36,702 nt of DNA, taken from Macrostomum lignano (taxonomy: Eukaryota). Made by a program: the position numbers and the translations under genes. The notes beneath the pieces are model-generated. The model worked only from the letters and a program-made list of their open reading frames with translations, had not been told where the DNA came from and did not search any database. The DNA is taken from assembly GCA_002269645.1 (NCBI GenBank), contig NIVC01002030.1:174210-210911 (forward strand), in the 5' to 3' direction. Positions 6,607 to 35,578 of the stretch are shown one piece after another; positions within the stretch are counted from its first letter, which is position 1; each line of letters starts with the position of its first letter.

Positions 6607-7488
6607 TCACATCCAGCCTGGCCCGGGTCGGAAGCCGCTGGCAGCGACAGCACCGGCAACGGGCGGCTGCGGTGACACCTGCTCATCGCTGCGCGACTTC
6701 GTCATGGCGCTGGCGGCAGCGCCCGCACCGACCGTGCCGGGGGCCGCCGAGCCGGCGTGCTGCGCGTCGGCCGAGAAGCGTCGATCCCCGGTGACCAGGC
6801 AGCTGGGCCCGCCGCTGTACATCATTGGATTCCAGACGCCAGTCTGCATGTAACGACGCGGCGACTCCTGGCCGGAAGAGCCGGCGGAACTGGTTGGAGC
6901 GCTGGCACGAGCGGCGGCCGAGCCCCAGAGGTCGTCCATCTCGCTGATCAGCTGTTTCACGCTGGCCGGGTTGTGGTCTCCGTCAGCCGCGCCAACCAAC
7001 GGGCGACCGGCAGCGGCCGCGGCAGATCGGCCGAGCACAGGCGTGTTGCTTGCCGGCGGGCTGCCCTGCGCTGTACGGCGCTGGTTGTCCTCAACCTGAC
7101 GCCGCTGGTGAAAGTCACGCACCAGCTTGGAAGCCTCGGCAGACGGCTCCAAGTCCGGGTCGAGCCAGAGGCCCTGGCAGCGCAGCGTCACGTACTCGCA
7201 GATGAGCTGCTTGGCGAACTTGACCTTGTCGGGCGTGCCGCAGATGGTGAAGTAGGTCTGAGGCGGCGGTAGGCCGGGGATCGATTCCTGCTTGCGCGGC
7301 GTGGCGATGTGCGTGTCCGACAGCTGCTGCACCCAGCGAATGGTCTGGCCGGAGGCGCCCACAATGAGGCCCACTTTGTCCTGCTCGACGTACAGTCGAT
7401 CCTCGATGCGGTTGGGCTCCACACGGTGGAGTCGCTCCTGCTGCACCTTGGTGAAGTGCTCGCTCATCTGCAGGATGATGCGCTTGGC
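6607..7488 (-). CDS. MEX3: MEX3, coding exon 3 of 3 (end of KH1, KH2, low-complexity tail)
   Basis: tgcag|GCC AAG CGC.. gives AKRIILQMSEHFTKV (cf. ARREIxSAAEHFS) then KH2 VGLIVGASGQTIRWVQQLSDTHIATP; TGA at 6607-6609. Confidence 0.92.
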   Translation of the reverse strand, partial: AKRIILQMSEHFTKVQQERLHRVEPNRIEDRLYVEQDKVGLIVGASGQTIRWVQQLSDTHIATPRKQESIPGLPPPQTYFTICGTPDKVKFAKQLICEYVTLRCQGLWLDPDLEPSAEASKLVRDFHQRRQVEDNQRRTAQGSPPASNTPVLGRSAAAAAGRPLVGAADGDHNPASVKQLISEMDDLWGSAAARASAPTSSAGSSGQESPRRYMQTGVWNPMMYSGGPSCLVTGDRRFSADAQHAGSAAPGTVGAGAAASAMTKSRSDEQVSPQPPVAGAVAASGFRPGPGWM

Positions 7489-7864
7489 CTGCATTTATGA
7501 GTGAAGAGAGTGGAGTTCAGTGAATCATTGGAATAAGAGTTTAGCATATCAATAACATTACATAGAGTCTGAGATGTTATGCAGTCAAATGGGAAGGTAT
7601 ATACGTGAGTCAGATTGTCAAAACTGGTAAAATATTTTATTATTTATGTAACTATACATCAAGTCTACAAAATCTTATTTGGTGAACAAATTCCTAATAG
7701 TGTAAGAATGGTCGCAACTGGAAGCTGCATGTTTTTTTTTCATACCGGGGCACGGAGAATAACAATGTTGGGGGTCTCTCGTTTTAGCAGTGCGGCCTAA
7801 AACACAATTTAAGTGTACATTAACGCGATCAGTTTTTGGCATACTAAAAAGATTTTATACTCAC

Positions 7865-10854: not shown

Positions 10855-11185
10855 TGATCTTGAGTTGTGGAGTGACGCCCTGATCTTGAACCAGTTGTGG
10901 AGTGACGCCCTGATCTTGAACCAGTTGTGGAGTGACGCCCCGACCTTGAACCAGTTGTGGAGTGACGCCCCGATCTTGAACCAGTTGTGGAGTGACGCCC
11001 TGATCTTGAACCAGTTGTGGAGTGACGCCCTGATCTTGAACCAGTTGTGGAGTGACGCCCTGATCTTGAACCAGTTGTGGAGTGACGCCCTGATCTTGAA
11101 CCAGTTGTGGAGTGACGCCCTGATCTTGAACCAGTTGTGGAGTGACGCCCTGATCTTGAACCAGTTGTGGAGTGACGCCCGGAGT
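10855..11185. repeat. 30-bp minisatellite (GTGACGCCCTGATCTTGAACCAGTTGTGGA) x ~11
   Basis: GTGACGCCC recurs every 30 bp from 10872 to 11172. Confidence 0.97.
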
Positions 11186-11330
11186 TGTAGGGGATTCACT
11201 AGTTATAATCAGAAATACTGCAGCTTGGATACGCCGAACAGTTAAGCAGCGGAAACTCCTTGCATTTAACTTAAGAGTTCACTGTACACATGATCGATTT
11301 AATTGCAGCATTGCACTTCTAATCATCGGC

Positions 11331-11600
11331 ATGTCAGCCCCAGCAAACAATAGCGACCCAGCATCTGTGGCCAGCCAAATCGAGGCCCTGGTGTCGGCCG
11401 CGGTCGAGGACCTGCTGGCTGGCAGGCAGCCGACTTTGTCTAGGCGGCCTGACAGGGGAAGAGGCTCGGCTCGCGCCCGCGCCAGCGCCCTGGCCAAACG
11501 GGCCCGCCTGCTAGCGCTGGTGCAGTCGCTGGTGCTGTCCGGCTCTGTGGCTACCAAGCGCGATCTTTACTACTTAGATCCGCAGTTCTGGGGCTGCCAG
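11331..11600 (+). CDS. SPO11: SPO11 meiotic DSB transesterase (Topo VIA family), exon 1 of 2 (join 11331-11600, 12731-13471; 336 aa)
   Basis: Encodes the 5Y-CAP/WH motif ATKRDLYY with the catalytic Tyr; donor CAG|GTTGGT at 11601, phase 0. Confidence 0.93.
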
Positions 11601-11789
11601 GTTGGTCACTGGTATCTTTTGTTTTGCATTAGGCAGTATTAAAAGTTGCAGTTTGAACTTTGAAAGATTGTGAAGCTCCACCTTTGTACGACCAGAGACC
11701 GGCAGAGAGTGCACTTTTACTGTCAAGAGACTCTCTGACTCATCCGACCTGATTCAGAACCTGCTAACGTCGTTCAGAGATCCTTAAAC

Positions 11790-12730: not shown

Positions 12731-13471
12731 CGAGCCCTCGACAACCGTCTCGACCGCCTGTGCCAGGAGCTGGACAGGCCGCGCTGGGATCTGAACGTGA
12801 TCGCCGCCTCCAAGACCTCCCTCTTCGGCAACTGCCGCATCTGCCTGCACTCGGAGGCGTCCGCATCCACCGGCGGAGGCGCCCTTATTGACTGCTCCGC
12901 CGAGCCCAAACTGCTGCCAGGCGACCTCCGGCGCATCGCGGAGGTTCATTGCGACGCCGACTATATCCTGGTGGTGGAGAAGGACGCCGTCTTCCAGCAC
13001 CTCGTGGAGCGTCGGACCGCCCTGTCGCAGCGATTCGGCACGCCGCTCCTGCTGACCTCGCGCGGCTTCCCGGAGCTGGCGGCGCGGGAGTTCCTCGCCA
13101 GGCTGAGCAGCCTGCTTGGCCACGCCGTACCGGTCTTCGCCCTGATGGACGCCGATCCCTACGGCCTGGAGATCTTCGCCTGCTACCTGGCTGCCCCGCT
13201 GCCCGGCATGCGGCTCCTCGGCCTGCGCCCGCTGGATCTCGGCCGCCTGATGCCGCCGGCGGCGCACCGGCTGCCGCTGACGTCGGCCGATTGTCGCCGA
13301 CTCGACTCCCTGGCCGGCCGGGTGCCCGGACTGGCTGGCGAGACCGCCGAGCTGCGCCGGCTGGGCTGGAAGTGCGAGATCGAAGCCCTGTACGAGATGG
13401 GCGCCGATTACCTGGCGTCTGAGTACCTGCCGGCCCGCCTGGGGGAGGAGGGCATGTCAATAGCTGAATAG
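12731..13471 (+). CDS. SPO11: SPO11 exon 2 of 2 (Toprim domain)
   Basis: ttag|CGA GCC CTC GAC AAC.. in frame with ORF 12797; motifs LVVEKDAVF, DADPYGLEI, KCEIEAL, YLPARL; TAG at 13469-13471. Confidence 0.95.
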   Translation, partial: RALDNRLDRLCQELDRPRWDLNVIAASKTSLFGNCRICLHSEASASTGGGALIDCSAEPKLLPGDLRRIAEVHCDADYILVVEKDAVFQHLVERRTALSQRFGTPLLLTSRGFPELAAREFLARLSSLLGHAVPVFALMDADPYGLEIFACYLAAPLPGMRLLGLRPLDLGRLMPPAAHRLPLTSADCRRLDSLAGRVPGLAGETAELRRLGWKCEIEALYEMGADYLASEYLPARLGEEGMSIAE

Positions 13472-17428: not shown

Positions 17429-17965
17429 CTGTGTGGTGAATTGGCAGCAACACCCGGCTCACACACTGAGACAGTAGAATTATATTCTATGTTAGTAGAA
17501 TTATACCGTATACTTTAGATTAGGGAAGTTTTTGTTATACATATACGTAGGACTACATGCCGTTATATGACTAACACAAGATTTGTGAGACAGCTCAAAC
17601 CGTTTGCGGTTACCTTCTCGGTTACATTTTTACCTTTCTTTTATTCAAATATATAAGTAAGATTGTTTGGTGCCGTGAAAACTCCAACTAGCCTACTGAG
17701 TTAGTAGACAGTTAAGCGCCAACACAACGATCTTGGACGACTCTCTTGCGATTCTATGGTACAGCTCACGTGACGCGCTTGTGACTCAACGGTCGCCTCT
17801 CCGTCGCATTAGACACATTAGAGTTGTTATTAAAAAGTCACAAGAGAACTCTTGGAAAAAAAACTTGGGTAGCAACGATGGAATTAAAGACGAGATTCCC
17901 AGAGAGCCGGGAGCCCTACCAAAACATTATCTAGCCAGCTCAAATACTAAGCCGAACGCACTGAC

Positions 17966-18273
17966 CTGCAAGCCTCGCGCAACATGCCACCGAAGCTGAC
18001 AGCGTGCTCAGGATTCTGGTAGCCATCGACCAGCATGTATAGCACGGACATGTTCCTTGTGATGTAGTCGACAGCTGGATACTTGTCTTCGATCCTCTTC
18101 GACATCAGCAGGGTGAACAGGTGCTCAACAAACTTGGCACTCTCAAAGTCGATCTTGTCAATATTTTCCAGCAGCATTGGGATCGCGGTCCGGTGCTCGT
18201 TGCAGAACATTTCGTGCGCCACTTCGGTCAGGGCCTCGCTGATTCGCAACTTCTCCGAGTTGGCATCAGACTC
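17966..18273 (-). CDS. CAB39: MO25/CAB39 coding exon 2 of 5
   Basis: ccgcag|GAG TCT GAT..; contains IDFE, PAVDYI, LVDGYQNPEHA, GGMLREAC; donor AG|GTCAGT, phase 2. Confidence 0.92.
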
Positions 18274-18340
18274 CTGCGGGGTGGGCTGGAAAGTGCAGCT
18301 AGCTGCTCTGCTTGTGGGATAGCTGTTTCCGGTGGGGCAA

Positions 18341-18762
18341 AAAGGCACACACGGGGAGGCAGCAGCCCCACCCACACCCGCCAAAGGCACACATAGGGAG
18401 GCAGCAGCCCCACCCACACCCGCCAAAGGCACACATAGGGAAGCAGCAGCCCCACCCACACCCGCCAAAGGCACACACGGGGAGGCAGCAGCCCATCCAC
18501 ACCCGCCAAAGGCACACATAGGGAGGTAGCAGCCCACCCACACCCACTAAAGGCACACACGGGGAGGCAGCAGCCCCACCCACACCCACTAAAGGCACAC
18601 ACGGGGAGGCAGCAGCCCCACCCACACCCGCCAAAGGCACACACGGGGAGGCAGCAGCCCCACCCACACCCACTAAAGGCACACACGGGGAGGCAGCAGC
18701 CCACCCACACCCGCCAAAGGCACACATAGGGAGGTAGCAGCCCACCCACACCCACTAAAGGA
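18341..18762. repeat. 41-42-bp minisatellite (GGGAGGCAGCAGCCCCACCCACACCCGCCAAAGGCACACAC-like) x ~10 in MO25 intron 1
   Basis: Direct tandem repeat; accounts for the repetitive ORFs at 18228-18755. Confidence 0.96.
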
Positions 18763-22090: not shown

Positions 22091-22634
22091 ATATATATCT
22101 GTATCGCCATTAATTTTTTTTGGATCCTACCTGATATCCATTCTTTAAGACTTCATAGTAATTCAATTCTTAATCTTAATTAAGGCTCTTAATCTTTTTT
22201 GCTTAAGTCTAAAATATTAAAGTAAGGAAGTTGTAGAAATAGATAATTTAGATTTAAAAATAGGATAATAGGTAATAAAAGGCATAATTGTTTTAGGTCT
22301 AATATATAAGTCTTTCATACTAAAAATAGTTTGTTATTATCTAAAATGATAATATCTAGCTTCTTTATTATAAATAATTTATAGGGAACAGTATAGAATA
22401 TTTATTAGGCCTAATAGTAATACTTAAAGAAATACTAACACAGAGATGGATCTAGCCTCCAGGTTCTAGGGGGTAGGGGAAGCTAGAGGCCAGGGATTAA
22501 TGCAGTTGTTTTGTCTACTATTAGTATCAATTTGTCTAATAATGTTTATTGTTGGTAAACAAAATGATTATTCAATGATAGGTATGTGGTATATTAATTG
22601 TTTATTTTAGCATAATTAATAATTATATTATATA

Positions 22635-22898
22635 TGTCGTAGGGGTATTCCCGTACGGTACAAAATCCTACCGCGGTAACCAAGTTGTTACAGGTGTTTT
22701 ACCTCCCACTTTATCAATTTTAATCCCAACCGCTGATACCAAGTTGTCGTAGGCCTTTTGGCTCTCTATAAGAATTTCACCGTTATGCCACCAAAGTTGT
22801 ACTAGGGGTGATTCTTTCTTCTTATATTGATTTTACAAAGTCACCAAAAGCTATCACAGGGCTAATTTACTAATCTCTTAAGTTGGTAGCTGCCACCA
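22635..22898 (-). other. Array of ~5 [LTR-end + PBS-like] cassettes with unique spacers, period 52-59 bp
   Basis: Plus-strand CCA ends at 22682, 22741, 22793, 22846, 22898; the first four are followed by 3-5 nt and TGTTACAGG / TGTCGTAGG / TGTACTAGGGG / TATCACAGGG. Confidence 0.75.
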
Positions 22899-22982
22899 GG
22901 ATTATCCTATTAATAAATTGTGAGTTTATCAATCTTAGAATAATCCGAGAAATGTTTCTTAGAATAAGTCTGGGTATTTATT

Positions 22983-23125
22983 TAGTCTGAGTATTAGTCT
23001 GAGTATTATTCTGAGTATTATTCTGAGTACCAGTCTGAGTATTATTCTGAGTAAAACTGTTAGCCCTGAAAGGTGTACTCTTCTGATTATTCTGGTAGCG
23101 TTCTATTATTCTGGTAGCGTTCTAC
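22983..23125. repeat. 12-bp repeat (TATTCTGAGTAT-like) x6 plus 19-bp repeat (TTATTCTGGTAGCGTTCTA) x2 inside the LTR
   Basis: Direct repeats at 22983-23054 and ~23088-23125. Confidence 0.85.
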
Positions 23126-24131
23126 TTAATAATGGCCTGAGCGGTATTCTTGGCTTACTGGTATATGTATTTCATGTACTTTGCAAGTCCTTGGGCGTTA
23201 CCGAGATCAGAGGGTCACAGCCTCCGGTTATTCTTATACTTATTACTTAAGAACTACTTCGTATTCTCTTACTACTCAATGCTGCTGCTTCTCAATAGTA
23301 TATACTGTATACGCTTCAGTCTATTTCACTCTTACTTCTTAAAAAGAATCAACACAGAAAACACTTAGAACTTGAATTCTTATTTTCTCGGAACTCTTAC
23401 TATTTGTTATCAACTATTTTGTTAGTGAACCGCGGTGCGCGAGGTTGGTTCTTCCTCCGCCAAATTTGCTTCTATTTATACTAAAATTTGCTACAGTTTT
23501 AAACAAAAATTCGTTAGTGCAAAATATTATAGAAAATACGAGTATTAAAACAAAATATGTTTCTTAGTTTTGGCGTGAATTCAAATTGACTAAACGGTGA
23601 CTATTTTATAAAAAAATTGGGAGGGGCCCTGCACATATATTATATAAAAGGTTTTTACCATACATTTTTGGCCTAGGCCTATAACTATAAGTAAGTATAA
23701 CTATGCAAGGTCTATTTTCCTAGATAGGTTGTAGTGCTTGGTATAGGCCTAGCAATTGACCTATCCCATAACAAATTTACTAGATTTCCCCCTGGCCTAA
23801 TATCAACATACTTATATTAACAATAAGCATTAACCCTAAGCTAATAACCAGTCACATTTAAGGCTCTATAAGTATAACTAAGTATAAGCTATAGGCCTAA
23901 CTCCTAATGATTGAAGGGATACAGTAGTCGTAGACTGAATGGTGTGGTTGCAAGTTGCAAACAGACACAACAGTGCTTGTCTTGACCAAACTGGCATCAC
24001 ATCCAACAGAAGAAAACTAGGAAATAATTTATTGAGCATTGCCGATGTCAAAAAATGAATTCTTCGGCTCTAATAAGTCTAATTAGCTAGGGAAATTGAG
24101 GATTGGAGCGCGTGAATTTAAGAATGTATGC

Positions 24132-26408: not shown

Positions 26409-27676
26409 TCAGACTACCGTTAGTGGCAAATCATAATAGAGTGTCTCGTCTTGGTAGACTTCTAGCCAGCGGCGTCGTCTTTGTATAACTGCCGCAGTAA
26501 TAGATAATTTTCGGCGCTGCCAGAGCCGAAAAGCACTACCAAAAGTTGCAGAAACAGCTCTGGACAGATCGCAGATTCCTTTGCTGTAAAACTGTATTGC
26601 GTCTTGACGGAACTGTGGTACCATCACAGACAACACAAGAAAATTAGAAAAAAGCTGGACACCGAAACATACCCTGCTAAAGTACACCAACGACTCTTCA
26701 TCAATTGGTCGGTAAATCTCTTGAGGCTGAGTCGCTAGCGAACCCTGTACTGATTGACTACCGCCGGCTGATAAGAATCTGGCGTACATTAGACATCCGT
26801 GCAGCAAACCCGGGGTGCTGAGCACAGCATGACCGAGACAACAAGCCAACAAACCCGTCCGCATTCGGATGAACAAGTCCACGTGGATTATTCGGTACTC
26901 AAGGCAGCGTCGACATTCTGGCTGGGGGCGTCTTTTGAATAACAGAAAAACGGTACATGCACTAACCACCGCGGTGACTGGCAGGATATCAGCGCATAAA
27001 ATATCAATTGCTGGCCACAACCAATCTGTGAATTCCTCTGTTATGGGCCAGCGTCGAGTCCATCCGCAGTGGTACACCTTGTCCAGATCATTAGTGGAAC
27101 TGCCTCTGTCAACAGTTAAGGTCCATGCAAAATGAGCATTGATAAGTGCTGCTAGTACAACCGATAGGAGTGCACAGTTCTTCACTCTGTCAGTGGAACC
27201 AGCGTTTGTGAAGCTGACTGGCTTCAAAAACATTCGTCTCGAGTCAAAAGCCATAGCGGCCTGTAAAAGCGATTTTAAGTGCAACAGACCGGAGTAAAGC
27301 ATGGTTAACAGCTGACAGTTGGACTCGTCCATCACGAGCAGCGATAGCATTATCTTTAAATCGAATGCGGACTGAAACCAGAGGTCAAGGAAACGAATAT
27401 ATAGCAGAAGAGTGTCCAAGACAGTGATAACCAGCGCATAGTAGCAGATTGGAAGCTGAGTCGATGCGTAGCGCAACATTAGCCGACAGGTAGCCAGATT
27501 ACAGACTGTGCCCATCAGCACTAACAGCAGAGGCAGCGCTGTGTTGATTAAAGCGAACTGTTCGCTGCTGAAGTCGCCAGAGCAGATCAAAACTTCATGG
27601 CCTAGCTGCGACAGTGCAGGCTCCACCATCGTCACGGACTCAATAAGCTCGGGTCCAGCTGTTGTAGCATTGCGAA
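26409..27676 (-). CDS. Class A (rhodopsin-like) GPCR, peptide-receptor-like (FMRFamide-R/GPR139-like clade); main 7TM exon
   Basis: Seven hydrophobic segments: TM1 GTVCN, TM2 ITVLD, TM3 C..MAFDSR, TM4 INAHFAWT, TM5 WPAID..LP, TM6 STP, TM7 SNFLVL..FR. Acceptor tctctccag| at 27677; an in-frame ATG at 27629 is the alternative start. Confidence 0.85.
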
Positions 27677-28005
27677 CTGGAGAGATGTATGGTTGAAGAA
27701 CTTTTGATCAAATAACCATAAATAATTATTCTGTTTTAGTATCTAGCTCTCTAATGTCCTTTTACAATATATAATTTATCCACGCGAAAAGTGTAAGCGT
27801 AGAAGCGTAGACTTTTACTCCTAGAAAGAAATTTAAGAAAAGGGCAAGTTAAGTTGTGCATGAATATACGCTCGTATTAACTATTGAGACATTGGAAGTC
27901 TTTGGTCGCCAGGGGCTAGCGGAATTGGCTGTCCTCTACGCCTCCTCGCTGCAGTTGAGTCAAGTAAGTCAGAGGTAAAATATTTTTAAATCTGGGTAAA
28001 TTCAC

Positions 28006-28795: not shown

Positions 28796-28946
28796 AATGG
28801 TAGATTGTGTCTATGGTTTTGGAGGTAGAGAATGGTAGATTGTGTCTATGGTTTTGGAGGTTGACAATGGTAGATTGTGTTTATGGTTTTGGAGGTAGAG
28901 AATGGTAGATTGTGTCTAGGGTTTTGGAGGTAGACAATGGTAAATT
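28796..28946. repeat. 35-bp minisatellite (AATGGTAGATTGTGTCTATGGTTTTGGAGGTAGAG), left part
   Basis: ~4 units, interrupted by the P-like element. Confidence 0.95.
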
Positions 28947-29143
28947 CAGGGACAACTAAAACCCTCGGGACGCGAAACGAGCCAATTCATGGCAAAAAAT
29001 CTAAGGGGCTCGCTTAAAAGTATTGTTCTATGGCTTTTTCAAGTCTTCTCTGCTATCAAGCAAATTAAAATTGCTTTAGCTGCGGCCAGCAGTGAAGCTA
29101 AGCTGAACTATATCAAGAGAAGCATTTTTATTCACTTGATGAA

Positions 29144-29278
29144 ATGCCAAGAAAGTGCAGCGTATTTCTGTGCTCGTCAAGTTCCAACTCTGAAGCCGTT
29201 CGAACACGGACATTTGCGTTTCCCAGAGATCCACAGGAGCGAGAGCGATGGAGAAAGGCGCTGCCAAATATTCTCCAG
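29144..29278 (+). CDS. THAP-domain protein of the P-like element, exon 1
   Basis: MPRKCSVFLC..FAFPRDPQERERWRKAL: THAP C-x4-C, P and W; donor CAG|GTAAGA. Confidence 0.88.
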
Positions 29279-29383
29279 GTAAGAAACCAGATCATTTGCT
29301 GTCATTACTGCTGCATAATTCCGCTTCAATTCTGCATGCCAGTCTCGTCCAAACAACTTGAAACCCAAAATTTATTATTTTAG

Positions 29384-29525
29384 AGAGTGACTGACAATAT
29401 GGGCGTGTGCGTAAAGCATTGGCCAAGCGATGCTCCAATGGTCAAGAAAAACTCTACCGAAAGGCCAATTAATCCTCCTTCTGTTTTTAATGGAGTTCCT
29501 AGCTCGTGTTTTGTTCAGAACCAAG
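29384..29525 (+). CDS. THAP-domain protein, exon 2
   Basis: ttttag|AGA GTG.. = RVTDNMGVCVKHWP..NPPSVF, completing C2CH and the AVP-box-like motif; donor G|GTACGT, phase 1. Confidence 0.88.
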
Positions 29526-29615
29526 GTACGTAACTTAAAGATTGCTCAACACTTAGCGTCTATATCGATTTTGCCGCTCACAATTATCTTACTTTTATTT
29601 TTACTCTTATTTTAG

Positions 29616-29964
29616 ACCAGGACCGACAGGCCGAAAAGCGCGGTGTTCTTTCTGACGCGAGGTGCGGCGACTTCGATGAGATGGACGCTTTTCAGCTGCT
29701 TGATTTTTTGCCGGCATGGGAAAGTTTTCGAGCTGAGGTGAAAAATTCGGATGTCGTATCTCGACATGCACTGAACACAGCTATTCTGAACGAAGACGTT
29801 TACTTGTTTACGTTAGATAAAGATGGAGACCTGTCTGTTCGAATTTTTGTCTCACCCAACTTTCTGATTCGTGCATTCAAACTGCATACACCGATTTCGG
29901 TTCGAGACTTGTTGGAATTAGGAGCTTTCCATTTCGGAGATGGCTTCGCTCTACTATATCGCAG
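29616..29964 (+). CDS. THAP-domain protein, exon 3 (crosses the deletion junction; spliced product ~213 aa ending ..RLYSD* in exon 4)
   Basis: ttttag|AC CAG GAC.. is in frame with ORF 29681; donor AG|GTAAGC. Confidence 0.7.
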
Positions 29965-30428
29965 GTAAGCTGGATATTAATTAAAATTTAATTCACAACG
30001 AGGTTTTATACAATCTCATAAAAACAATTCAAACCGTGCTTTATTGGAAATTGACAGGTTATACAGCGACTAAAGAAGGCATCAAAGGAACAGATTTGAT
30101 ATCAGAGACGAGCATTCCAGCCAGCGAATTCACTGAAGAGTTATCTCGCGGAAAGCTTTGTCATCCTCCACAATGGCTGTTAGACTTATCCTGTCTCTGC
30201 TACAGCAGTTTTATTCTGCACTCTCCTACGTGCGCAACTCGCGTGCAGAAGCTGTTTTATGTTATTAAGGACTTTTACTTTCCAACTAAGACACAGTTCA
30301 GCATGGACAGTGTGTCCCGTCGGCTAGCCAACGTTTTTTTCAAAGGACTAGTAAGACGCTCGTCAAAACTCCCACCAATACCGACGACATCCCATGATAG
30401 AAAGCTTCGGAAGTTAGATGCTCAGTAG
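29922..30428 (+). pseudogene. Out-of-frame C-terminal domain of P-element-type transposase (split by intron 29965-30057)
   Basis: A second frame reads ELSISEMASLYYIAG|YTATKEG..SEFTEELSRGKLCHPP..RRLANVFFKG; YIAGY and SRGxLxxP are typical of P-transposase C-termini. The frame is preceded by TAG at 29919-29921. Confidence 0.8.
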
Positions 30429-30504
30429 GTGAAGTTCCAGCGTTTCCTTTATGTACGAGCTACTGACTGTTTGTGTCGTCTTGTCCTTGGAGTTCCGTAT
30501 TTGC

Positions 30505-30650
30505 TTCTATCTTCTTGCCGTTGGAGTTTCATCTTCGCTTTCATCCTTTATCTTCTTGCCGTTGGAGTTTCATCTTCGCTTTCATCATCTTCTTGCCGTT
30601 GGAGTTATATCTTTGCTTTCATCTTTTATCTTCTTGCCGTTGGAGTTTTT
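30505..30650. repeat. 37-41-bp repeat (TATCTTCTTGCCGTTGGAGTTTCATCTTCGCTTTCATC) x ~4 in the 3' region of the P-like element
   Basis: CTTCTTGCCG at 30511, 30552, 30589, 30630. Confidence 0.9.
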
Positions 30651-30879
30651 TGTTGATATGGCGGTTACTTTATTGTAAATACATTGTAATTATATCACTG
30701 GTTCTTATTCTTTAAATTAAATACTCGACATTGCCTCGCTTTACTATTTAATCTAACCGTTAATGCCTGATAGCAGAGAAGACTTGAAAAAGCCATAGAA
30801 CAATACTTTTAAGCGAGCCCCTCAGATTTTTTGCCATGAATTGGCTCGTTTCGCGTCCCGAGGGTTTTAGTTGTCCCTG

Positions 30880-31075
30880 GGTAAATTGTGTCTATGGTTT
30901 TGGAGGTAGAGAATGGTAGATTGTGTTTATGGTTTTGGAGGTTGAGAATGGTAGATAATGTCTATGGTTTTGGAGGTTGAGAATGATAGATTATCTCTAT
31001 GGTTTTAGAGGTAGAGAATGGTAGATTGTGTTTATGGTTTTGGAGTGGACAATGTTGGATTTTTTCTATGGTTTT
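30880..31075. repeat. 35-bp minisatellite, right part
   Basis: Continuation of the 28796 array after the TSD, decaying rightwards. Confidence 0.93.
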
Positions 31076-32632: not shown

Positions 32633-33079
32633 CGCTAACTGCGTATTCTGTTGTTGTTGTAGATAAGAGTAAATTTCTTAGCAACAGTTCTTAATTCCTA
32701 AACTATGCTAAACATCTCAAACCGACCAATGGTTTTGCTTTCTTGATAAATTTAAGACCAAGTTATGCCATGCAAACTATGCATGGCTTTGATACAAAGG
32801 TAAGATATTATAGCTACCACTTTGGTCAGGCCATTCGCTACTTTGCTATTCAAGTGGGGAGCTTAGCTACATAAGTGGCGAAAAATCAGAGCTATCTTTT
32901 ATGCCTACTAAATATATTAATGTCTCACTTATCAAGCAATTGAATATTGTATATCCTAGTTGACGTGGCAGTTGCATAGTTGTATCTCTAAGTCAAGAAG
33001 TTATTTAAGAATTCAATAATACCTATCGCTGACTTATGGTTTTTTGCTGAAGGAATCGCTATAACAAGCAGAAGTTATC

Positions 33080-35578
33080 ATGGAATCGTACCTGGAACCG
33101 CTGCGACGAGCCGCACTTGGCATCATGGATTCTGGACACCCTGTCGATGGAGGTGTGTTTCGCCTGATCAACGAAGACTCTATGTTGCAGAGGCTGTACG
33201 GAAATAGAACTATCCAGAAGGAATTAATAATATCGCATGCCCTCGATACAATTCTCTCATTCGAGAGTCTCTTTGTGGTAACAACATCTTGCATTCTGGC
33301 TATCGGTCTTCTGATCTGTATGACGGTTTTCGCCTGTTGCCGAAAACAGATTCGAGCGCCATGGACTTTGCGAAGTCATGCTTGCGGGCTATACCGAAGG
33401 ACGCCGCGAATTGGCTTTGCAGTGCTGCGAATTCTTGGAGCAGGCATATTATTATTGGAGTTTATCTCACTAGCTACAGCTTTTACAACTAATATCTGGA
33501 TCTATGCAGAAAGCCATCGACAAGCCGGAGACTCTGTGCATGGTAGTGTTGAAAGATCGTTTCAGTTTTTGGATTCATTCTTTCAAACATTGGTGCCAAA
33601 TGCTCGAATCGAGATGCGCCCAATCGTCTCACACGCTCTCGAGAAGACGGAGACTGTTCGTCGAAAGTCGCAGGCAAATTTTAGACGGGATTTCGAGAAC
33701 GAAATCTCTGCCAAAGTAATGAAAGAATCCAGCTCAGAGCTATTAAAGAGTGTCCGGTTTTTTTACAACTTTGGACTACTCCATGGAAGCCAAAGAGTCG
33801 CATTGAACAAAACTCTTGAGGGAATGAAGCAAAAAACAGCAATAATAAAATCATCAGATAAAACTTGCATTGAAGCCAAGTTTTCGCCATTATTTTGCGA
33901 CAAGCACCGAGACAACGTCAATCAAGCAAACAAACTAATTAACTTAGTTCTGAAGAATTGGACTAAGCCACCAGAGATAAGCGGTGAGGCTCTAGCGGAC
34001 GCTATAAGCGCAGCTATGAAAAAGCCGGAAGAATTTGCAGCCGCTTTGCGAGCAATGGATAGCAGTCCAGAACATCTTGCAGCTGATCGAGACCGCAGAC
34101 TGAATCTCAGTAGGTCACTCAACAAAGTAATTAGCCGCGCATTCGATAGGGACCTGAACACGACAGCGTTTGTAATAAATGGATTCGAAAAAAACCTGGT
34201 AAAACTGGAAACTCAAGTTGTTCGTCCTTCTCGACAGTCCCTTCGAAATTTATCTGGCATTATAGGGCTTGCTAGCCGGCGACTCATCACAGGATTTGAG
34301 AACGCAAGGTTTGGGATTGCTACAGTTGTTTTGGTGCCATCTATTGTTGTCGCTGCTGTGCTGACATTTGGTTTCACGGTCGTGATTGTGACCCCTGCGC
34401 GGACTAGCCGCGTAATTCGGCGCCTACGACCTTGGCTGACGGCGGGTTACCTGACCTGCATTACTTGCCTCTTACTAGCACTGGCAGTCTTCTGCTTAAC
34501 CAACTACGCTCGAACTCAGGGCTGTCGGTACTTTGAGATCGGCGAAAAATGGGATGAGGTGTTTGGAAACTCCTCAGCAGACGCCTATTTGGTTCCAGAA
34601 GTGAACAAGGTACTTAGACACGTGCGCAGTCGCCGGATACCTGTCACTGCCATTGGGAGTGTAATCGGAGGCATCAGCAACGGTTGTCGCGCCAACAAAC
34701 CCCTTCTGCTAGCTCTGGATGCTATCCAGTACATTAATGTTGATTTGGCCAGCCAAGAAAGTGCAGAAAAGGCACAGAGATTTAAGGAAAGTGGAACAAA
34801 AATCCTGCGACGGGAACTAGATCGCGCTAATATAACCAGACTTTACGACAGCAGTCAGAGAGGAAAGCTTGAAAAGTTAGCCAAATTGACTCAGAACTAT
34901 TCGAGTGTTAACTATGAGAGAGTCTCACAGGACATTCGGTATCAGCTTCTGGAGGCTGTGAAGCCGGCAGCAGAACGGCTGCTTTCTGTGCAAACTGACG
35001 AGGCTCTTATACTCAACGGCCTGAATAAGAGTACAGATCGAAAATTCATTGAGAGCAATCTGTATAGAATCAGGCTGAATATCGGATTACTACACGACCT
35101 AAAGAATTTAAGTCTCAACTACGCTAATATGCTTACTCAGCTAGATAAGCACAAAATGATTGCGTCTATAGCTACGAGACTAATTTCAGCAACTAGCAAG
35201 TTTAAAACTTTCTCTCAAAACAAGAACCTATGGATCGAGACAGCAATCAAGCATTATATTAAAAGTGTTGTTAATGATACCACCGATGACTCTCTGACAA
35301 TTGCCAGAGAGTCGGCAACCGAATTTCTAGCTAAAATCGGCAGTTGCCGGCGCCTGTTTGACTTCTATTGGACGTTTGTCGGAGTGCCCTGCCGCTCGCT
35401 GCTGAATCCTCTCAGTGTTCTGTGGCTGTGCCTGGCCGTTCATCTCTGCTGCGCGGTGCCTCTGCTGGTGTGTGGCAGCCTCGTCAGCGTCAGTGTCAGA
35501 GACGAATTCGAGCTGTTTGACCATAAGGCTGACCATGCTGGTCCTGTGATGACTAACTATTCTGACCATACTAACTAA
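33080..35578 (+). CDS. Prominin-like pentaspan membrane glycoprotein (832 aa), single uninterrupted ORF
   Basis: Topology TM1 (..VFACCR), TM2, large loop, TM3/TM4 (..QGCRYF), large loop, then SC..VPCRSLLNPLSVLW..TM5, matching prominin (SCKP..C..IIDPLNLFW); many NxS/T sequons. Confidence 0.85.
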   Translation: MESYLEPLRRAALGIMDSGHPVDGGVFRLINEDSMLQRLYGNRTIQKELIISHALDTILSFESLFVVTTSCILAIGLLICMTVFACCRKQIRAPWTLRSHACGLYRRTPRIGFAVLRILGAGILLLEFISLATAFTTNIWIYAESHRQAGDSVHGSVERSFQFLDSFFQTLVPNARIEMRPIVSHALEKTETVRRKSQANFRRDFENEISAKVMKESSSELLKSVRFFYNFGLLHGSQRVALNKTLEGMKQKTAIIKSSDKTCIEAKFSPLFCDKHRDNVNQANKLINLVLKNWTKPPEISGEALADAISAAMKKPEEFAAALRAMDSSPEHLAADRDRRLNLSRSLNKVISRAFDRDLNTTAFVINGFEKNLVKLETQVVRPSRQSLRNLSGIIGLASRRLITGFENARFGIATVVLVPSIVVAAVLTFGFTVVIVTPARTSRVIRRLRPWLTAGYLTCITCLLLALAVFCLTNYARTQGCRYFEIGEKWDEVFGNSSADAYLVPEVNKVLRHVRSRRIPVTAIGSVIGGISNGCRANKPLLLALDAIQYINVDLASQESAEKAQRFKESGTKILRRELDRANITRLYDSSQRGKLEKLAKLTQNYSSVNYERVSQDIRYQLLEAVKPAAERLLSVQTDEALILNGLNKSTDRKFIESNLYRIRLNIGLLHDLKNLSLNYANMLTQLDKHKMIASIATRLISATSKFKTFSQNKNLWIETAIKHYIKSVVNDTTDDSLTIARESATEFLAKIGSCRRLFDFYWTFVGVPCRSLLNPLSVLWLCLAVHLCCAVPLLVCGSLVSVSVRDEFELFDHKADHAGPVMTNYSDHTN

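Follow-up and report, generated by a model that had tools for sequence, protein, structure and literature searches.

A single primer-binding site (PBS) is usually taken to fix where an LTR ends, and a new copy is taken to have two identical LTRs. A locus in the flatworm Macrostomum lignano raises the question of how an LTR can come to end instead in a stack of PBS-like motifs, each in its own setting. The window analysed here is the whole stretch of 36,702 nucleotides (contig NIVC01002030.1, forward strand, positions 174,210 to 210,911), and the LTR in question occupies about 1 kb of it.

The LTR in the window

The features of the LTR are listed below in window coordinates.

22635–23635, minus strand: solo LTR of a Ty3/Gypsy family, 1001 bp, TG..CA, with TATA on both sides
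23636–23639, minus strand: target-site duplication (TSD) TATA, upstream copy, read from the sequence; 4-bp TSDs are typical of the family
22631–22634, minus strand: TSD TATA, downstream copy, read from the sequence
22852–22898, minus strand: first unit, a 10-nt PBS head plus CTACC, spacer and att-like end, with no preceding att end
22798–22846, minus strand: cassette 1, most decayed PBS-like head (8 edits), spacer, att end
22745–22793, minus strand: cassette 2, PBS-like head (5 edits), commonest spacer type, att end
22686–22741, minus strand: cassette 3, PBS-like head (3 edits), spacer, att end
22635–22682, minus strand: cassette 4, terminal, PBS-like head (4 edits), spacer, att end used here
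22982–23053, no strand assigned: 12-bp tandem repeat within the LTR, upstream of the array
23475–23480, minus strand: TATAAA, a possible TATA box by sequence only

The element is a solo LTR: one LTR is present, the TSD lies on both sides and the internal region is absent. Neither an RT nor an integrase family was found in the ten window ORFs scanned. The LTR is 83–86% identical to the LTRs of two-LTR elements elsewhere in the genome. The first-pass annotation had called it the solo LTR of a gag/pol element, and the duplicated TATA and the related LTRs flanking gag/pol elements bear this out; the 1-kb segment is thus neither single-copy nor foreign to such elements. In the public runs X15 and X16, read depth over the LTR was up to several hundred times that of the flanks. 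One X15 contig crossed the left junction between LTR and flank, and the contig at the right junction reached 30 letters into the LTR, one below the bridging rule.

Could the arrays, or the unequal LTRs described below, be artefacts of assembly? The assembly is redundant, and the window insertion also lies on a second contig (L002) with identical flanks, which is not an independent copy. Cassette junctions are nevertheless present in contigs from four public runs, and elements with unequal LTRs have matching 4-bp TSDs and LTRs that are 99.7–99.9% identical. An artefact is therefore scarcely credible.

The window also holds several features apart from the LTR. Frames at 11160–11639 and 12731–13468 (plus strand) match TP6A_N and the Spo11/TOP6A Toprim domain; they are probably exons of one Spo11-like gene, and a 22-bp minisatellite sits between them. 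A frame with a KH domain lies at 6607–7491 (minus strand) and one with a Mo25-like domain at 17947–18543 (minus strand). Open frames of 837 and 432 codons, at 33065–35578 (plus strand) and 26409–27707 (minus strand) respectively, gave no Pfam match. Inverted repeat arms of 116 nt, 1.7 kb apart and each beside a 35-bp tandem array, span 28796–31075 and are possibly a foldback-type element.

Match of the array to host tRNA-Leu

Five motifs headed by TGGT fall within the final 264 bp of the LTR. Their TGG starts on the minus strand are at 22898, 22846, 22793, 22741 and 22682, which gives spacings of 52, 53, 52 and 59 bp, the same as those read earlier from the CCA positions. The PBS complement TGGTGGCAGCGGTGGGAT(T) was derived from the host tRNA-Leu(AAG) and tRNA-Leu(TAG) genes in the genome. 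The edit distances of the five heads to this 18-mer, in minus-strand order, are 6, 8, 5, 3 and 4, and the 15/19 and 17/19 (plus one insertion) matches first noted for the two terminal cassettes hold on inspection. The array therefore has 2, 3 and 4 sites at no more than 4, 5 and 6 edits, counts matched by none of 300 dinucleotide shuffles of the 270-nt array.

Four of the five heads are preceded by an att-like end plus a 3–5-nt linker. The claim of about five cassettes, each an att end joined to a PBS, consequently stands for four true junctions and fails for the first motif (22898), where no att end precedes the head. In this first unit a fixed 10-nt head is followed by (A)CTACC; it was terminal in 0 of 12 arrays, and a related motif was present at 17 of 26 loci checked, in both lineages described below.

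If the cassettes were alternative sites for different tRNAs, the element could switch primers, as the first-pass annotation had suggested. Among 244 distinct units, 30 are closer to the Leu(CAG)-type complement than to the AAG/TAG type, yet no unit is closer than 2 edits to the CAG type. The host set sampled comprised 31 genomic tRNA-like ends in three classes, and the common inner heads matched none of them. Every exact head is of the AAG/TAG type, and other Leu tRNA ends have no exact inner match. Primer switching is accordingly dropped as very improbable.

The family and its breadth

Querying the genome with the array gave at least 59 matches, the best 40 of 433 candidates having been scored. 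The junction motif occurs 1018 times genome-wide, compared with 0 for the control. Pfam matches in one copy (C35) are in the pol order protease, RT, RNase H and integrase, and integrase lies downstream of RT in all 39 loci with both matches. One two-LTR copy carries gag, a pol frame in Gypsy order and a third frame, and two others lack pol. The third frame, beyond pol (L033, 2632–3735, minus strand), is of low complexity, has no Pfam match and is shared with a pol-less copy. With this pol order, paired TG..CA LTRs, a polypurine tract (PPT) ahead of the 3′ LTR, TSDs and a PBS complementary to the 3′ end of host tRNA-Leu (AAG/TAG) adjoining the 5′ LTR, the family belongs to Ty3/Gypsy. Gmr1-like elements in the strict sense carry integrase upstream of RT, and that assignment is ruled out by the order in the 39 loci.

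The LTR pairs are mostly 99.5–100% identical, which argues for a young lineage, and 4-bp TSDs were found in 40 distinct elements. The closest named Pol is from Macrostomum lignano (94%). In a quick tree, one genomic RT segment was at zero distance from this Pol, and all sampled families formed one long-branch clade (15 rows, SH-aLRT 100) in a tree built without named clade references.

The exact 18-mer of the Leu complement occurs 666 times in the genome, and a sister lineage was sampled through twenty stretches from this list, chosen for perfect pairs. The sister families have unrelated LTRs and RTs that are 45–62% identical, and they stack perfect heads with spacers of 17–67 nt. Nine two-LTR elements of the sister lineage comprised seven symmetric ones, one with a longer 5′ LTR (L252) and one with a longer 3′ LTR (L253+254). 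The cassette stack is a real and clade-wide trait.

Beyond this genome, a pattern scan returned no viral contigs and seven metagenome stretches, none with an RT match. Five of these metagenome contigs are AT-rich and carry tandem units of an LTR-end-like sequence plus a Leu PBS. Three of them (L264, L265 and L267) have near-identical 60–63-bp tandem units, each a partly palindromic mini-repeat with a GTTACA end followed by a perfect Leu PBS; tandem Leu PBSs of two different types occur in L268, and L270 is a PBS-derived satellite. L266 and L269 are GC-rich and have no relation to the retroelement; each contains a tRNA-like gene, the 3′ end of which recurs 66 bp away.

Other arrangements were recorded alongside. 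Head-to-tail tandems with shared LTRs and two or three internal regions occur at L169+L170, L201+L202 and L212+L213. At its downstream end L168 has another PPT and then an LTR of which only about 45 bp is left, the LTR start being joined to the last cassette. Satellites of 35 bp and 58 bp with a tRNA T-loop-like motif are found at L038–L041, L051–L055 and L061–L065.

Modularity, order and decay of the arrays

A parser applied to the fetched loci of the lineage resolved 106 distinct arrays of 1–8 cassettes each, with about 45 spacer types; it missed some junctions and admitted a few false units at 8–9 edits. Three spacer types of the window recur in these arrays. That of cassette 2 has 43 occurrences, is terminal in 10 and follows 16 predecessor types; those of cassettes 3 and 4 have 23 and 21 occurrences and are terminal in 4 and 8 respectively. 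The spacers had been described as unique, which does not survive this comparison. The suggestion that inner cassettes possess their own integrase att ends fared better: among the 23 types seen at least 3 times, 15 end the array in some copies and lie inside it in others. Pairs of spacer types occur in both orders in 21 of 122 cases. The reversible pairs, the types that are both terminal and internal and the 16 predecessors indicate that the order has been shuffled, and not that one long ancestor was merely trimmed.

Heads come closer to the tRNA complement towards the leader (Spearman rho −0.46; 222 units, 52 arrays), and without the first unit rho is −0.26; significance is overstated in both cases, the units having common ancestry. 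This test took 91 of the 106 arrays; the 15 that were dropped had a recorded locus retrieved on account of a perfect head, although a few of the 15 had been found without that bias. The polarised arrays, and spacer types common to several families, agree with the proposal that the array is a serially acquired record from related elements.

Is the stack instead an ordinary tandem repeat of one U5-PBS unit, diverged and rearranged by slippage, unequal recombination or template switching of the minus strand, with tRNA uninvolved? Exact duplicates of neighbouring cassettes do occur (L005/L006, L256 and L257). Different spacer types are 53.4% alike, compared with 49.3 ± 0.6% for shuffled spacers (shuffle maximum 51.3%); this weak relatedness favours a repeat origin, and a distant common unit behind the spacer types is possible on sequence grounds. 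Tandem Repeats Finder made no call on the array in the window LTR, and the roughly 53% likeness of the 45 types is not that of a homogeneous unit, so the array is no plain tandem repeat or minisatellite, in agreement with the first-pass annotation. Polarity is also left unexplained by a tandem repeat, as is the finding that one spacer can follow a decayed head in some arrays and an exact head in others. This explanation is taken up again below, with the unequal LTRs.

Pairing between att end and PBS was considered as a further constraint. Hairpin covariation showed no excess between att end and next head (113 junctions; 1391 of 2000 permutations reached the observed value) or between att end and the head of its own cassette (161 pairs; 1781 of 2000 permutations). 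Selection on an att-PBS hairpin was therefore rejected, covariation being no higher than in permuted pairs.

Leader PBS alleles

The PBS in the leader was perfect in 10 of 40 elements, and its first 11 nt were kept in 39. Two alleles, in which the first 11 and the last four bases are kept and the middle is changed, account for 28 of the 40; the remaining two are one hybrid allele and one with a single mismatch. Several copies with a perfect PBS differ by only 0–2 positions at the LTR start from a copy with an imperfect allele. A variant host tRNA to match the imperfect alleles was sought in the genome, giving 0 exact and 8 one-mismatch matches; at three of the five returned near-match loci that were scanned, a tRNA gene was absent. 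Predicted pairing with the tRNA end is strongest at the perfect site (−39 kcal/mol), weaker for the two leader alleles (−25) and weaker again for imperfect inner heads (median −21).

By analogy with retroviruses, the pattern of leader alleles would be the outcome of tRNA copying followed by heteroduplex resolution. A review describes Ty1 and Ty3 as inheriting the PBS without tRNA copying (PMC7472051), and by that account the present lineage would differ from Ty3. The same review argues that mismatched PBS alleles are favoured against 3′-tRNA fragments (3′-tRFs). In the flatworm alleles, the changed middle would pair with the 5′ seed of an 18-nt 3′-tRF.

These alleles bring in a reading in which the stack is kept by selection against host 3′-tRFs: a leader PBS with a broken seed would still prime, and the inner sites would be decoys, or spare imperfect sites that escape tRNA-templated repair. 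The 28 leader sites changed between their first 11 nt and last four speak for this, as do the persistence of imperfect leader alleles though repair towards the tRNA is one-way, a seed heptamer that is intact in just 19 of 201 distinct inner units, a trait that is clade-wide across RTs 57–62% identical, and the similar trade-off argued for mouse endogenous retroviruses (ERVs) in that source (PMC7472051). The inner heads tell differently. Their changes are G>A, G>T or C>T in 526 of 588 cases, with G>A alone making up 357, which fits AT-biased drift; moreover, the sister lineage stacks perfect sites, and a seed-broken decoy would be a poor binder. Selection of this kind is unlikely as the cause of the stack, and an adaptive role in evading or decoying tRNA fragments is possible as far as sequence can tell.

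Elements with unequal LTRs

The leader motif marks 74 sites, of which 66 were examined. One had no PBS, seven had no 3′ LTR in the stretch, 17 were left out for want of a TSD-bounded end (tandem, truncated or interrupted) and one was a duplicate by its flanks, which left 40 elements. Array ends match on both sides in 36 of these, including L180, in which a 75-bp indel lies upstream of the array. Three elements (L175, L176 and L184) are longer on the 5′ side by whole cassettes: the 3′ LTR ends at an inner att next to an intact TSD, and the 5′ side has one, one and two extra cassettes respectively ahead of the leader PBS. One element (L220) has a 3′ LTR that is longer by one cassette. L176 also has an LTR from one subfamily joined to the leader and gag of another.

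In all three 5′-longer elements the first extra head is the exact tRNA-Leu complement, a match shown by 3 of the 84 remaining inner sites (Fisher p = 1.9e-4, for sites that are not independent). The three other exact inner heads sit in L171, L172 and L181, which are symmetric sisters of L176 and L184 and have the extra cassettes of those sisters in both LTRs. Spacers of the extra cassettes also occur with imperfect heads and other neighbours (L173, L209, L019 and L020). Exact heads at the junctions are predicted if priming or the landing of plus-strand DNA took place there, whereas deletion after insertion would be indifferent to head quality. The earlier suggestion that inner sites serve as alternative priming sites thereby gains ground, in the form that they join in priming or plus-strand transfer.

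A tandem repeat without tRNA involvement could shorten one LTR by deletion between att repeats, which may account for L220. The three exact tRNA copies at three unequal junctions are left unexplained by it, and this origin for the stack is distinctly unlikely.

Differences between 5′ and 3′ LTRs showed no significant concentration within the array (9 in 5570 nt, compared with 31 in 27342 nt; p = 0.40), and a general sign of two templates is thus lacking. Segment identity gave no parent–daughter order for L184/L172 or for L176/L171/L181. Heads at 1–2 edits are scarce (1 of 84), which steady birth with slow decay does not predict.

Growth of the stack

Taken together, the findings make it fairly probable that the stack is built in reverse transcription, when an inner PBS-like site is used instead of the leader PBS. 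The inner site would be taken either by tRNA-Leu priming or by the tRNA copy that ends plus-strand strong-stop DNA. Minus-strand synthesis would continue through the U5 of an RNA that is unprimed or co-packaged, and on this extended minus strand the tRNA copy would anneal out of register. The leader end would thereby receive a fresh head together with the downstream cassettes of the partner. In the following round, primed at the leader PBS, these cassettes would pass into both LTRs. The same asymmetry would arise by another route, if priming took place at an inner head that was already perfect. Template switching at shared junctions would then reshuffle and trim the arrays, and the heads would decay afterwards, mostly from G to A. 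No benefit to the element need be supposed to explain the stack.

Growth by use of inner sites in reverse transcription is supported by the exact junction heads (3 of 3), the symmetric sisters, the recurrence of the extra-cassette spacers with imperfect heads, the signs of tRNA copying at the leader PBS, the polarity, the pairs found in both orders, the mixed make-up of L176 and the 5′-longer sister element L252. Against it stand several observations: the main set has only three 5′-longer elements, known from assembly, and the longer 3′ LTRs of L220 and L253+254 need another event. The scarcity of heads at 1–2 edits, the even spread of LTR differences and the review's account of Ty3 weigh the same way. 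Seven of nine sister elements are symmetric despite perfect inner heads, which also counts against it and indicates that such heads are neither always used nor quickly lost.

A wider proposition is that the whole Gypsy clade trades integrase-end/primer-site modules by out-of-register transfer while replicating under 3′-tRF silencing. It joins tRNA-templated plus-strand transfer, co-packaged families, a polarised record of partners and a stack coupled to a seed-broken leader PBS, and as a whole it is doubtful.

Comparison with known systems

Tandem PBSs are present in Drosophila 412/mdg1. More than one PBS-related site per genome is described for HIV-1 MAL, with its partial PBS duplication (PMC3185550), and Drosophila Gypsy (PMC1635307). 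Unlike the flatworm stack, the MAL duplication is a single 23-nt insertion that lies downstream of the PBS (PMC3185550), and Drosophila Gypsy has its second PBS at the genome 3′ end (PMC1635307); in neither case do these sources describe stacked sites that bring integrase ends of their own within the LTR. In HIV, MLV and mouse ERVs, as in the flatworm elements, the prevalent PBS alleles are mismatched to the primer, and perfect revertants are scattered among close sisters; those elements have a single PBS, whereas the flatworm Metaviridae element has a tRNA copy also inside U5 (PMC7472051). Aberrant second-strand transfer in HIV-1 offers a further likeness, a misplaced plus-strand transfer leaving tRNA-derived sequence at the junction. 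Its products are defective proviruses, whereas the flatworm product has two LTRs and a TSD, and its sisters are symmetric (PMC12657518).

Terminal repeats and PBS-bearing units also alternate in tandem-array TRIMs. These arrays repeat whole LTRs and internal domains, whereas the flatworm unit is the last 25–40 nt of U5 plus a PBS (PMC6934838). The flatworm arrays also differ from TRIMs in having heterogeneous spacers and in lying inside each LTR of coding elements. A tandem-array TRIM is ruled out, the units being U5 ends of about 50 nt within the LTRs of gag/pol elements.

Ty3/Gypsy (Metaviridae) elements of Macrostomum lignano itself have the same PR-RT-RH-INT order, TG..CA LTRs, PPT and tRNA PBS as the present family, according to PMC12801592, in which the Macrostomum lignano clades are given as Mag, CsRN1, Gmr1/Osvaldo and Mdg3. 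In a term search, PBS and tRNA were unmentioned in its main text, and four short leader motifs, 'PBS' and 'primer binding' were absent from its five supplements. No description of such cassette arrays was found in the open full-text literature, a scope outside which subscription papers and Repbase reports lie. The LTR architecture appears to be a new form, assembled from known parts.

Significance

The lineage departs from both rules given at the outset, that of the LTR end with one PBS and that of identical LTRs, and it does so in a way that can be read in the genome. Cassette arrays will mislead the calling of LTR ends, the annotation of PBSs and the dating of LTRs. On the reading favoured here, the stack would be an ordered record of exchanges between families, and it argues that a Gypsy element copies the tRNA when plus-strand DNA is transferred. 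Sister copies that differ in whether their sites are perfect or imperfect occur naturally, and they would let the question of priming versus tRFs be tested in an unaltered invertebrate.
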